A stretch of 16,647 nucleotides of DNA, taken from the IMG/VR virus record IMGVR_UViG_2734482579_000003. One strand, 5' to 3'. The notes beneath the pieces were generated by a model. It was given only the letters and a program-made list of their open reading frames with translations. It was not told the origin of the DNA and ran no database searches. Made by a program: the position numbers and the translations under genes. Origin of the DNA: a virus. Taxonomy: Duplodnaviria > Heunggongvirae > Uroviricota > Caudoviricetes. Of the stretch, positions 127 through 15,489 are shown piece by piece; positions within the stretch are counted from its first letter, which is position 1, and each line of letters opens with the position of its first letter.

Positions 127-798
127 TCAGCGACCAATCACCACAACCTGACCACCGTCCCCTTCGTCTGCCGTGCTGATCTCCTGAGATACCACACGTG
201 ACCCCACGCGCATTTCACCATACAGAACAGGCATAACATTGCCCTGGGCAACCATGTTATCCAGTGAGGAGAAATAGGTGTTCTGCTTACCGTTATCCGT
301 TGTCTGTGTGCGGGGAGTTCTGGCTTTCGGTGCCAGCATCTGAGCCACACCGCCGAGCACCATACTGGCACCGAGAGAAAACAGAATGCCGGTCATACCA
401 CCGGCACCAATGGCAGCCCCCCATGCTGCAAGGGTGGCTCCGGCGGTAAAGAATGATCCGGCAATGGCGGCTGCTCCCAGGACAATCTGGAATACACCAC
501 CTGACTTGGCCCCGGCGACTCTGGGAACAATATGAATCACAGCGCCGTCAGGCAGAGCCTCATGTAACTGTGCCGTTAATCCGGACGTGCTAACATCCTG
601 CCCGGCAATACGCACCTGATACCAGCCGTCGCTCAGCTTCTGACGAAACGCAGGGAGCTGTGTGGCCATCGCCCGGATGGCTTCGGCACCCGTTTTCACA
701 CGAAGGTCGATGCGGCGGCCAAATCGTTGCAAATCCCCGTAAAGGCAGATGCGTGCCATGCCCGGTGACGCCAGAGGGAGTGTGTGCGTCGCTGCCAT
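127..798 (-). CDS. I: Tail tip assembly protein I (223 aa)
   Basis: ORF 127..798, 223 aa, same length as lambda gpI. Hydrophobic Gly/Ala-rich C-terminal half. Overlaps the 3' end of K by 103 nt in another frame, as in lambda. Confidence 0.9.
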   Translation of the reverse strand: MAATHTLPLASPGMARICLYGDLQRFGRRIDLRVKTGAEAIRAMATQLPAFRQKLSDGWYQVRIAGQDVSTSGLTAQLHEALPDGAVIHIVPRVAGAKSGGVFQIVLGAAAIAGSFFTAGATLAAWGAAIGAGGMTGILFSLGASMVLGGVAQMLAPKARTPRTQTTDNGKQNTYFSSLDNMVAQGNVMPVLYGEMRVGSRVVSQEISTADEGDGGQVVVIGR

Positions 799-1358
799 TT
801 GTCGGTATACCTCTCTCGTTTGCTCAGTTGTTCAGGAATATGGTGCAGCAGCTCGCCGTCACCACAGTAAATGGCGGCATGATTCGGCACCGATGAACCA
901 AAACAGCACAGCAGCACATCGCCCGGCTGCGCCGCTGACAACGGCACCTGATACAGCCCTGTGGCCTCCAGATTATCCAGATAGAGATTCTGACCGTGAC
1001 GCCACCAGTCATCCTCACGATGAAAATCCGGCATCTCAATCCCCGCCAGATGGTAAGCATCCCGGAACAGCGTGTAACAGTCCGTCACCCCGTGCTCAAA
1101 GCGCCGCCCGGTAAGATGTGGCACACAGCGGAACTTGTGAATCGCCCCCCGGCAGACCAGCCACCACGGCAAATCACTCTGCACCTGCAGCCGCCGGTCG
1201 GCCTCACTCAGCCAGGGCAGACCACCGTCCGGCTCACCGGAGATATTCACGCAGGGGAAATATCTTTCCCCCTCCGGCGTTCTTACCACGAAGCCGCACG
1301 ACTCCGCTGGAGCACATCGCCGGGCGTGCGCCAGAATCGCTGATTCTGTCTCTGTCAT
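696..1358 (-). CDS. K: Tail tip assembly protein K (MPN/JAB-like N-terminus, NlpC/P60-like C-terminus); 220-aa ORF, true start uncertain
   Basis: ORF 696..1358 sits between L and I. The motif GVTDCYTLFRDAY is consistent with an NlpC/P60 catalytic Cys region, and the N-terminus (ILAHARRCAPAESCGFVV) looks like an MPN-fold start. I remember lambda gpK as 199 aa, but the codon at the corresponding position here is GGC, not a start, so I kept the ORF start 5 nt after the L stop. Confidence 0.8.
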   Translation of the reverse strand: MTETESAILAHARRCAPAESCGFVVRTPEGERYFPCVNISGEPDGGLPWLSEADRRLQVQSDLPWWLVCRGAIHKFRCVPHLTGRRFEHGVTDCYTLFRDAYHLAGIEMPDFHREDDWWRHGQNLYLDNLEATGLYQVPLSAAQPGDVLLCCFGSSVPNHAAIYCGDGELLHHIPEQLSKRERYTDKWQRRTHSLWRHRAWHASAFTGICNDLAAASTFV

Positions 1359-6939: not shown

Positions 6940-7514
6940 CGCTTTATTACCATTCTCAGTTGATGCTGCAGCGCATAGCCCAGCTCTTTCGGAAGACGTT
7001 CACGCCGTATCCGTTCAATATTCTGTTTAAACGCCGTGGTCAGCGGCACCGCCATCGGGATTTTCACCACATCAATGGGGTAACGGTTTTTCCCGGCCAC
7101 ACGCTGCATAACATGCCACCGGCCGTTTTTCAGTTGCTGAATAAACGCGCCGGGAATACGACGGTTACCCACCACAAGCACGCTGCCGCCACCTTTCAGG
7201 GATGAACGCTGCCCCTTTTTATGACGCCTGCGGCGGGACAGGACAACCCGCGCATTACCCAGCTTGATTACGGGCAAATCCCCCCGGTTAACTTTGATTC
7301 TGGCCTGCGGATTTTTGACCGTGGCCCTTTTCAGCCTGGCCCTTTCCTTTACCAGTTTCCGGCGTACCTTTGTCTCACGGGCAACCTGTGACGCAGACTG
7401 CGATATCGCGGATGAAGCAACGCGGTTAATGGCCATTGCGGCGGCACCGGGCACCGCCGTTTTGCTGATACGGCTGAGGTTTTCAACGGCCTGCTCAAGA
7501 CCTTTTATGGCCAT
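6936..7514 (-). CDS. Z: Tail completion protein Z (192 aa)
   Basis: ORF 6936..7514, 192 aa, same length as lambda gpZ. Very basic protein; 4-nt overlap with the U start. Confidence 0.9.
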   Translation of the reverse strand: MAIKGLEQAVENLSRISKTAVPGAAAMAINRVASSAISQSASQVARETKVRRKLVKERARLKRATVKNPQARIKVNRGDLPVIKLGNARVVLSRRRRHKKGQRSSLKGGGSVLVVGNRRIPGAFIQQLKNGRWHVMQRVAGKNRYPIDVVKIPMAVPLTTAFKQNIERIRRERLPKELGYALQHQLRMVIKR

Positions 7515-7890: not shown

Positions 7891-8289
7891 TTATTGCATT
7901 CTGGCCAGGCCGCGCTCTGTCATTTCGGCTGCCACACCGGCAGAGACACGAAACGCCGTTCCCGGCAGCACAAATGCCACAGGTTTATCCCGCGTGGCGT
8001 GAAGTGCATCAGTATGCAGCGTCACCAGTGCCACGACCGTGACCAGTTCAGCCGTATCCTGAATCACGGTATCCGGCTGCGCTGATACCACCTCATTTTC
8101 ATGCCCGGTCAGCACATTTTCCCGGCTGAGAGGGGTGTCCTGACCGGCAGTTTCATCCGTGTCATCAAGCTCTTCTTCCAGCTCTGCCACACGAAGCGCC
8201 AGTTCTTCTTTCGTTCCCGTCAAACTGACATCGCGGTTCAATTGCTCACCCAGCTCCTGAAGACGGGCAATCAGTTCATCTTTCGTCAT
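7891..8289 (-). CDS. FI: DNA packaging accessory protein FI (132 aa)
   Basis: Tracked ORF is 145 aa, but the lambda gpFI start MTKDELIARL maps to the ATG at 8289..8287, giving 132 aa. GGAGGAG Shine-Dalgarno lies 5 nt upstream of that ATG on the minus strand. Confidence 0.85.
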   Translation of the reverse strand: MTKDELIARLQELGEQLNRDVSLTGTKEELALRVAELEEELDDTDETAGQDTPLSRENVLTGHENEVVSAQPDTVIQDTAELVTVVALVTLHTDALHATRDKPVAFVLPGTAFRVSAGVAAEMTERGLARMQ

Positions 8290-8310
8290 GAACTCCTCCA
8301 CAGAGAGAAA

Positions 8311-8328
8311 ATGGCCCCGAAGGGCCAT
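8311..8328 (-). terminator. Stable stem-loop (7-bp GC-rich stem, UUCG tetraloop) followed by a U-rich stretch, between E stop and FI start
   Basis: Minus-strand RNA reads UAA-UC-AUGGCCC-UUCG-GGGCCAU-UUUCUCUCUG-UGGAGGAG-UUC-AUG. Plus strand 8311..8328 is atggccccgaagggccat, a perfect inverted repeat. Confidence 0.4.
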
Positions 8329-8330
8329 GA

Positions 8331-9356
8331 TTACGCCAGTTGAACGGACACGAACTCATCAGGATCAGCCAGCAGCATCAGCGGTGCTGACTGAATCATG
8401 GTGAACTCACGCGCCGGATCGCCGGTGGTCACCCAGTTTTTCGGGTAACGGGCAGAAGCGTTAATGCCTTCGCGCTGTGCGTCCGCATCCTGAATGCAGC
8501 CATAGGTGCGCAGACCGCGAGCCTGAGTGTTCCCCAGCACCATCGTGTTGTCCGGCAGGAAGTTCTTTTTGACGCCGTTTTCCACGTACTGTCCGGAATA
8601 CACGACGATGGCCACATCGCCATACATTCCCTTATAGGACACCGCTTTGCCCAGGTCTTTTACCGCTGTCTCCAGCTCGGAATGAGAGCCGCGACGGGTA
8701 TCCAGCTTCTCCTTGACGGCTTTGAAGGAACGGAACAGCGCCCAGCCTTTCGGGTCAAACACGATGATATTCACCACACCGCTGGCGTTCAGCGCGTAGG
8801 CTTCGATATCGTCGGTCGGGTCATACGTGGACTTGTCACGCTTGCTCCACTCCGTGACGCCGGACTGTGTGATGTTGTTCGCCGCACTGCGGCCCATATC
8901 CACCTCAACCGGATCGAAGGCTTCACCGGTCATGGTGTATTTGCCCTTGAGCACGGCAGAAACTGCCTGCATCTCTTCGACCTGAGCAATGGCCAGCTCT
9001 TCGTCACGCATGTTCTGCATGATGATGCGACGGCGGCGGTAAGCCGGGTCCGCCAGATTCTGCGGATCTTCATCCGGCAGGCGACGCAGGGTCATCTGCG
9101 GATTCACCTCATGCTTGGGTTTGACATATCCCGGCGTAAATTCAGAGGTGGAGCCGCCACGGGAACGGATAACCTCACCGGAAACAATCGGCGAAACGTA
9201 CAGCGCCATGTTTACCAGTCCCGGAATTTGTGAGAGATAGACTTTCTCCGTAGTGAAGGGATAGCTCTCACGGAAAAAGAGACGCAGAAACAGCGGATCA
9301 AACTTAAATTTCTGCTCATTTGCCGCCAGCAGCTGGGCGGTTGTGTACATCGACAT
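8331..9356 (-). CDS. E: Major capsid protein E (341 aa)
   Basis: Lambda gpE N-terminus MSMYTTAQLLAANEQKFKFDPLFLRLFF maps to the ATG at 9356..9354, giving 341 aa as in lambda. The tracked ORF starts 9 codons upstream. Confidence 0.95.
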   Translation of the reverse strand: MSMYTTAQLLAANEQKFKFDPLFLRLFFRESYPFTTEKVYLSQIPGLVNMALYVSPIVSGEVIRSRGGSTSEFTPGYVKPKHEVNPQMTLRRLPDEDPQNLADPAYRRRRIIMQNMRDEELAIAQVEEMQAVSAVLKGKYTMTGEAFDPVEVDMGRSAANNITQSGVTEWSKRDKSTYDPTDDIEAYALNASGVVNIIVFDPKGWALFRSFKAVKEKLDTRRGSHSELETAVKDLGKAVSYKGMYGDVAIVVYSGQYVENGVKKNFLPDNTMVLGNTQARGLRTYGCIQDADAQREGINASARYPKNWVTTGDPAREFTMIQSAPLMLLADPDEFVSVQLA

Positions 9357-9371
9357 AAAAAAATCCCGTAA

Positions 9372-9396
9372 AAAAAGCCACACAGGCGGCCTTTAG
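9372..9396 (-). terminator. Terminator-like hairpin plus U-tract in the D-E intergenic region
   Basis: Minus-strand RNA AAAGGCCGCCUGUGUGGCUUUUUU can form a stem of about 9 bp (two G-U pairs) with loop CUGU, followed by ACGGGAUUUUUUU and then the E AUG. Confidence 0.3.
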
Positions 9397-15477: not shown

Positions 15478-15489
15478 CGCCTTCCGCCC
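15478..15489 (-). other. cosN cohesive-end region, variant sequence relative to canonical lambda
   Basis: Flanks match lambda (GCGAAAACCCGCG on one side, CGTAACCTG on the other). The 12-nt core reads CGCCTTCCGCCC on the plus strand, i.e. GGGCGGAAGGCG in lambda orientation, versus canonical GGGCGGCGACCT as I recall it. Confidence 0.6.

Follow-up and report, generated by a model that had tools for sequence, protein, structure and literature searches.

A conserved hairpin on the message strand directly downstream of the major capsid gene E in a lambda-like phage

The gap between the major capsid gene E and the packaging gene FI of a lambda-like phage holds a hairpin, on the mRNA strand and directly behind the E stop codon, that is conserved at this position in related phages independently of its sequence and of the U tract that follows it. 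Evolution has kept this hairpin, which most likely protects or ends the capsid message and is an element of an ordinary kind. Among the specific functions we considered, we tentatively prefer that of a barrier to 3′ exonucleases, and so to decay, marking where the E cistron ends on its 3′ side.

The stretch of DNA analysed (the window; 16,647 nt) carries its late genes on the minus strand, and the features discussed here are collected in Table 1. E has 97–99.5% nucleotide identity with entries labelled lambda E or major capsid protein, and the protein encoded upstream of it matches the Pfam family of head decoration protein D. Across E–FI the nucleotide identity of the window is 97.3% with lambda (J02459) and 99.5% with phage Chlobot. 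The E–FI gap is 41 nt long and non-coding, and the junction reads, on the minus strand, CAACTGGCG TAA TC ATGGCCC TTCG GGGCCAT TTTCTCTCTGT GGAGGAG TTC ATG ACG. The 7-bp stem ATGGCCC/GGGCCAT with its TTCG loop, the U-rich stretch and the GGAGGAG motif, all described in a first-pass annotation of this DNA, are present on that strand. The counterpart of the hairpin in lambda lies at 7163–7180. Directly after the stem the tail reads UUUCUCUC in the window, with three U at once and T at five of eight positions, and UGUUUCUC in lambda, where the stem is followed by U-G-U, unlike the three U of the window. The tail as a whole could be a weak terminator U tract, a spacer accessible to endonucleases, or both.

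Table 1. Features of the window and their positions
Feature	Position	Strand	Remarks
Gene E, major capsid protein, 341 aa	8331..9356	-	Pfam Phage_cap_E, E=8.5e-71
E stop TAA	8333..8331	-	followed by TC before the hairpin
E–FI hairpin	8311..8328	-	begins 2 nt past the E stop
Hairpin 5′ arm ATGGCCC	8328..8322	-	sequence
Hairpin loop TTCG	8321..8318	-	sequence
Hairpin 3′ arm GGGCCAT	8317..8311	-	sequence
U/C-rich single-stranded tail TTTCTCTCTGT	8300..8310	-	sequence
FI Shine-Dalgarno GGAGGAG	8293..8299	-	sequence; the phage 434 record marks an RBS at the corresponding site
FI ATG	8289..8287	-	reads GGAGGAG TTC ATG ACG
Gene FI, DNA-packaging chaperone, 132 aa	7891..8289	-	Pfam Packaging_FI, E=2.6e-56; annotation of homologous records
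D–E intergenic hairpin AAAG-GCCGC-CTGT-GTGGC-TTTTTTT	9370..9394	-	canonical intrinsic-terminator shape, directly upstream of E
Second perfect 7-bp hairpin, at the FI start codon	8273..8294	-	AGTTCAT-GACGAAAG-ATGAACT
Small hairpin UUUCUCU/GGAGGAG	8293..8310	-	can cover the FI Shine-Dalgarno in the window's variant
220-aa ORF over the classical lambda 'L-K gap'	696..1358	-	starts 5 nt after the upstream stop
Perfect 7-bp hairpins in the 220-aa ORF	1348..1332; 1271..1254	-	
Joined cos region	15478..15489	-	12-nt cohesive-end position reads GGGCGGAAGGCG

By itself the hairpin has a folding energy of −12.3 kcal/mol, which makes it the joint most stable perfect hairpin of the window, and in contexts of 200–500 nt its pairs form with probabilities of 0.72–1.0, the core pairs reaching 1.0 in each context tried. 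Judged within this single genome it has no significance. The surrounding 66-nt region folds no better than its shuffles (z = −1.08), and the sense strand of the window holds four perfect stems that have 7 bp or more and five or more GC pairs, against 3.5 ± 2.4 in dinucleotide shuffles; about 0.009 such hairpins are expected per 41-nt gap. A simple terminator scan lists the hairpin as terminator-like, with the low specificity of 25 sites against 15.6 expected. Because the single-genome counts match chance, support for the hairpin has to come from its position and its conservation across relatives.

We therefore rely on a collection of 389 loci with E homologues from IMG/VR, GTDB genomes and GenBank phages, 348 of which were usable; past the stop codon these comprise 121 distinct sequences. 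A hairpin, defined as perfect, of −9 kcal/mol or better and at most 60 nt after the stop of the E homologue, is found in 100% of the distinct loci at an E protein identity of at least 95%, in 99% at 86–95%, in 83% at 60–86%, in 79% at 35–60% and in 17% below 35%. Coding controls of 60 nt from the same loci gave 3–10% in three groups and 37% in the group of at least 95% identity, that of lambda, because one coding hairpin is conserved there. At 68–75% identity unrelated hairpins occupy the same place, for example AGGCUCC-UUCG-GGAGCCU, AGGGGC-UACG-GCCCCU and GCAUGCCCC-UGAAU-GGGGCAUG, and a Pseudomonas-type group at about 40% identity has the hairpin CUGAGGCGCGC-NNNN-GCGCGCCUGCAG, with compensatory variants of its own. 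In relatives, 2 to 25 nt separate the stop codon from the hairpin, which in every group lies directly 5′ of the next gene's Shine-Dalgarno sequence, its end falling about 10–25 nt before the ATG in examples inspected by eye. Nucleotide similarity between lambda-type and phi80/mEp237-type phages stops at the E stop codon, and the hairpin core is common to both. Some GTDB entries in the collection (L087–L102 and L119–L157) carry lambda E at 96–100% identity on short contigs, whose names in many cases give a coverage of about 1x, in assemblies of such unrelated bacteria as Chromatium, Neobacillus, Pseudomonas, Bradyrhizobium, an Akkermansia MAG and others; these most likely represent lambda DNA contaminating the sequencing libraries.

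Among the enterobacterial phages the core GGCCC-loop-GGGCC is invariant and the rest of the gap cannot be aligned between lineages. The outermost pair occurs as A-U, G-C, G·U or U-A, and the second pair as U-A or C-G. Since a whole-gap MAFFT alignment split the outermost 3′ partner across columns, pairs were counted on ungapped 24-nt slices centred on the core. In this alignment, which was cut to fit the hairpin and so leans towards structure, 94.3% of the cells from 48 distinct enterobacterial versions are paired and 16 are double-change cells; the observed covariation score exceeds that of all 500 shuffles, and slid registers fall to 33–57% paired. The compensatory changes that the first-pass annotation had proposed looking for in lambda-like phages are thus found, in the outer pairs. 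Most of the stem provides no covariation evidence because its 5-bp core is invariant in these phages: five of the seven pairs are constant or changed on one side only and give little information either way. Within 107 lambda-group loci a single one of 14 stem sites varies, from A to G with retention of a G·U pair; the tail and Shine-Dalgarno sequence, the most variable part of the gap, vary at 9 of 21 sites.

The loop carries information on the strand. UNCG loops (UUCG, UGCG, UCCG) closed by a C-G pair occur on the sense strand in 31 of 49 distinct enterobacterial versions, and the C-UUCG-G of the window, with its UNCG loop and C-G closing pair, falls within the definition of this tetraloop; relatives of the N15/phi80 type have other loops (UGUC, UGUU, AUUC). 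We know of no stable tetraloop family of the form CGNA, the complement of UNCG. As the UNCG loops lie on the sense strand, the mRNA, and not the DNA or the antisense strand, is probably the selected form; as unrelated hairpins share the position and the outer pairs covary, selection would act on pairing and not on the DNA sequence. The comparison supports the view that the hairpin is under selection as a sense-strand RNA structure just 3′ of E.

Is the conserved feature a terminator? The D–E hairpin serves as an internal control. Its homologous place is annotated as a rho-independent terminator in the records of HK629, 434 and mEp237, and hairpin and U tract are kept together in 83–100% of distinct loci in groups spanning 35–100% E identity; this element is better conserved than the one between E and FI, down to about 40% E identity. 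With a U tract defined as at least five T in the 8 nt after the stem, distinct loci have one at D–E and E–FI, respectively, in 93% and 100% of cases at an E identity of at least 95%, in 100% and 37% at 86–95%, in 100% and 50% at 60–86%, and in 83% and 4% at 35–60%. Median T-weights are 4.2–5.0 for D–E; for E–FI they are 3.25, 1.77, 2.38 and 0.55 in the same four groups, in order of falling identity. Individual values are 3.22 for the E–FI tail of the window, 2.61 for that of lambda and 4.28 for the D–E tail, against a coding median of 0.33 and a coding 95th percentile of 1.74. In the group at about 40% identity the E–FI hairpin adjoins the GGAG of the next gene without a U tract. An intrinsic terminator should have a GC-rich stem of about 5–14 bp and a loop of 3–8 nt on the transcribed strand, followed at once by an unbroken U tract that begins with three U and has at least 5–6 U in 8. 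The E–FI stem itself has the expected form (7 bp, five GC pairs, a 4-nt loop, on the sense strand), but a U tract conserved together with the hairpin was not found across the identity groups. Because the tract is lost at E–FI and kept at D–E, the feature conserved downstream of E is the hairpin and not a terminator. Some termination by unmodified polymerase is plausible in the window and its closest relatives, where the tail is U-rich and three U follow the stem, but not as a family-wide constraint.

In conjunction with what is known of lambda transcription, we propose the following model. RNA polymerase modified by Q reads the lambda late operon and resists terminator hairpins, so that on late transcripts the E–FI hairpin would come into play only once clear of the polymerase. 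The modified polymerase would read through, and the hairpin would then fold in the released late mRNA. A 3′ end would arise downstream, either by an endonuclease cut in the U/C-rich tail or beyond it or by occasional termination, and 3′-to-5′ exonucleases trimming back from this end would stall at the GC stem capped by C(UUCG)G. The segment containing E may in this way outlast the FI-distal segment, shifting the ratio of E to FI mRNA and adding to the high yield of E. Such a protective role is consistent with a stable stem-loop on the mRNA strand just past the cistron (−12.3 kcal/mol, 2 nt after the stop), with the conservation among relatives of structure rather than of sequence or U tract, and with the presence of a hairpin directly after each of two abundant head-protein genes, D and E. 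On the other side, Sampson and colleagues are said to have concluded in 1988 that relative yields of lambda late proteins are set mainly by translation initiation; this would leave little need for an effect at the mRNA level and counts against a barrier. In the literature we found no paper on the E–FI hairpin, which the lambda sequence papers of 1982–83 may mention, and no data on transcript 3′ ends, abundance or half-life for the site. One may extend the model to E as a whole: bracketed by the terminator-shaped D–E hairpin and the hairpin-only E–FI element, which is conserved as far as Pseudomonas-type phages, it could form a discrete, long-lived capsid message within the 20-kb antiterminated transcript, a post-transcriptional gain control, independent of Q, for the most abundant protein of the virion; the hairpin of the N15/phi80 type would also hold the bases behind the E stop against the FI Shine-Dalgarno sequence and so couple FI translation to that of E. 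We consider this extension unlikely.

The first-pass annotation had suggested either a partial terminator or an RNase-protective structure. Selection on a sense-strand RNA structure just 3′ of E is supported, and the loss of the U tract in relatives favours protection over termination. A leaky Rho-independent terminator would halt polymerase without Q; it might also remove some Q-modified complexes and in that way step down transcription after E. Polymerase without Q at pR′ would stem from stray initiation inside the prophage or from read-in. The shape fits, with a GC stem and a 4-nt loop followed by TTTCTCTC, and the scan calls the site terminator-like, albeit in a list of 25 hits where 15.6 are expected. 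Three U follow the stem of the window, and the T-weights of window and lambda (3.22 and 2.61) exceed the coding 95th percentile of 1.74, but lambda itself has U-G-U after the stem, the base of the stem is A-U/U-A and not G-C, and, outside the group closest in identity, a U tract accompanies the hairpin in only 37%, 50% and 4% of loci while D–E keeps its own. Textbook versions do occur, such as ACGGCCC-TCCG-GGGCCG-T8 in locus L150 and CGGCCC-AGCA-GGGCCG-T6 in locus L228; the curated records of HK629 and 434, however, mark a terminator at D–E and not at E–FI. Polymerase modified by Q should in any case resist such a hairpin. The rationale for terminators inside an antiterminated operon is nevertheless sound: together with processive antitermination they filter spurious transcription (PMC8955417), and the same roles have been proposed for a predicted terminator in the late operon of phage L/P22 (doi 10.1101/2020.10.05.325894). 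On balance we regard leaky termination as the main rival reading, though a somewhat unlikely one. The accompanying argument from stoichiometry, that E is needed far above the genes downstream, is weak as a general rule and only partly convincing, because the better terminator shape lies, in the same antiterminated operon, between D and E, whose proteins are needed in roughly equal copy numbers, and because Q antitermination should blunt termination.

The position of the hairpin directly 5′ of the next Shine-Dalgarno sequence in all groups could also point to translation of FI. The hairpin might shield the FI ribosome-binding site from the intense translation of E, by blocking re-initiation or scanning and preventing pairs between the FI site and E coding sequence, or might take part in masking the Shine-Dalgarno sequence until a ribosome at the E stop opens the structure. 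In phages of the N15/phi80/mEp237 type, the bases ACUUCC after the E stop can form a helix around the hairpin with GGAGU, the FI Shine-Dalgarno sequence, and one lineage has AUUUCC/GGAAU, a compensatory change from C-G to U-A; this putative outer helix, exemplified by loci L003 (2676..2723) and L380, may couple FI translation to E termination. It adds only about 3 kcal/mol, however, and rests on a single compensatory event, and in the lambda type the 2 nt between stop and hairpin leave no anti-Shine-Dalgarno segment. In the window, the tail is able to pair with GGAGG and the FI AUG lies within another hairpin, but the tail and Shine-Dalgarno variants of lambda-group loci do not visibly covary, and the distance from stop to hairpin ranges from 2 to 25 nt. 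Control of FI is, on this evidence, distinctly improbable. Even less probable, in our estimation, is the absence of any selected RNA function, with the element being a DNA palindrome that marks a module boundary or recombination joint between E and FI, a target for a protein or transposase, or a hitch-hiker. The hairpin core does span the break in similarity at the E stop between lambda-type and phi80/mEp237-type phages, the hairpin is the exact insertion site of an IS4 that duplicated 12 bp of its target, and one such hairpin per genome is not improbable by chance. A DNA-level or neutral origin is nonetheless disfavoured: distant relatives have hairpins of unrelated sequence at this place, the outer pairs covary, the bias towards UNCG loops is strand-specific, and the stem varies far less than its flanks.

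Other candidates were rejected. RNase III needs about 20 bp or more of near-continuous double-stranded RNA, and the hairpin has only 7 bp, with no longer helix in folds of 200–500 nt. A stimulator of stop-codon readthrough or frameshifting is ruled out by the spacing of 2–25 nt among relatives; reading through the E stop would add only 14 codons before a TGA. Searched against Rfam, the whole window matched no family at the gathering score, and 8200–8420 gave only chance-level hits at an E value of 10 or less. To our knowledge the hairpin is not similar to REP/BIME elements.

Several observations on variants and neighbouring sites deserve mention. In phage PhiR70_1 (PV340577.1; L390 2073..2090 and L392 1470..1500), whose record gives E. 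coli C as host, the IS4 lies inside the E–FI hairpin, flanked by the 12-bp duplication GGCCCTTCGGGG; a truncated stem remains after E, a 5-bp core hairpin before FI, and the two genes are separated by about 1.4 kb. If this phage is viable, an intact hairpin next to E is not essential. In phi80 (NC_021190.1; L391 2088) the annotated FI start is a GTG 9 nt after the E stop, inside the hairpin GTGGCCC-TGTC-GGGCCAC; an ATG 39 nt downstream, preceded by GGAG, appears the likelier start. The hairpin at the FI start of the window (in RNA, AGUUCAU-GACGAAAG-AUGAACU) is perfect only with the window's T at 8291, the C of lambda producing a mismatch, and both variants, GAGTTCATG and GAGTCCATG, circulate. 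Elsewhere in the late operon, the 220-aa ORF suggests a K protein longer than that of the lambda annotation, which is 199 aa. This ORF covers the L-K gap, and its two hairpins are probably coding, so that the generalization that all large late-operon gaps carry hairpins was abandoned. At the joined cos region, where the window reads GGGCGGAAGGCG, the lambda cohesive end is GGGCGGCGACCT, and the flanks GACAGGTTACG and CGCGGGTTTTCGCTATTTATGA in the window match those of lambda.

What would be the relevance of such an element? If the hairpin prolongs the life of the E message or trims distal transcription, a layer at the level of mRNA would be added to the view that translation initiation sets the ratios of lambda late proteins, and the 'intra-operon terminators' that phage genome papers mention without explanation would gain a defined role. 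With the contrasting D–E and E–FI hairpins, termination and RNA protection could be cleanly told apart, and the 41-nt E–FI gap could act as a compact, naturally tuned insulator or stabilizer part. Should the hairpin have no measurable effect, it would serve as a reminder that a terminator shape within an antiterminated operon does not imply regulation.

Elements of this kind are familiar: hairpins or terminators follow the major capsid genes of T7-like phages, and intra-operon terminators have been noted in P22-like phages. In phage L/P22 a predicted terminator ends the procapsid gene module inside the late operon, with roles described by the authors as unknown (doi 10.1101/2020.10.05.325894). 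Like the E–FI hairpin, the P22/L and lambda D–E terminators are GC stem-loops in rare non-coding gaps of the late operon, at the end of a head-gene unit, and the late operons of P22/L and lambda are alike in being transcribed from a single promoter under Q-type antitermination. Within lambda the two sites differ: D–E keeps an A tract and U7 in groups of 35–100% identity and is annotated in curated records, whereas E–FI keeps only the hairpin and has no annotation in the records of lambda, HK629 and 434 that were inspected.

The T7 terminator after the major capsid gene is T-phi. LUZ100 has a terminator immediately downstream of its major capsid gene, 'similar to T7' (PMC10134795), and the inefficient terminators of T7 serve to balance expression (PMC9163698). 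In T7-like phages as at E–FI, a stable hairpin immediately follows the major capsid gene; in those phages it is thought to favour capsid over distal genes. They differ in that termination has been measured and involves a single-subunit phage polymerase, whereas the E–FI site is transcribed by Q-modified host polymerase and is only a putative terminator. The conAn system of pLS20, in which internal terminators and processive antitermination filter spurious transcription, offers terminators that were functionally tested, and three U right after the stem are the most conserved terminator feature there (PMC8955417); this feature is present in the window and absent from lambda and most relatives. 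Systems such as pLS20 and lambda N and Q resemble E–FI in combining a long operon, an antiterminated polymerase and terminator-shaped sites inside.

For a protective hairpin the closest comparisons are cellular. The malE-malF REP and Rhodobacter puf hairpins are intercistronic, block exonucleases and set operon polarity. In the gal operon, a hairpin downstream of galE (8-bp stem, 4-nt loop) likewise blocks exoribonucleases and sets polarity; the 3′ ends come from RNase E cleavage or Rho termination and are trimmed back to the hairpin, which is situated some 120 nt into the following gene and whose function was shown by RACE and Northern blots (PMC11925234). The likeness to E–FI consists in a short, stable stem downstream of the favoured cistron. 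The gal hairpin is located inside the next gene and experimentally established, whereas the E–FI hairpin is intergenic, 2 nt after the stop, and was recognized from its sequence. Extra-stable C(UUCG)G hairpins were reportedly first noted in intercistronic regions of phage T4, by Tuerk and colleagues in 1988. The E–FI hairpin has the exact C-UUCG-G motif, again on the mRNA strand of a phage intercistronic region, and C(UUCG)G/UNCG hairpins constitute a class of structural motif, not a functional family.
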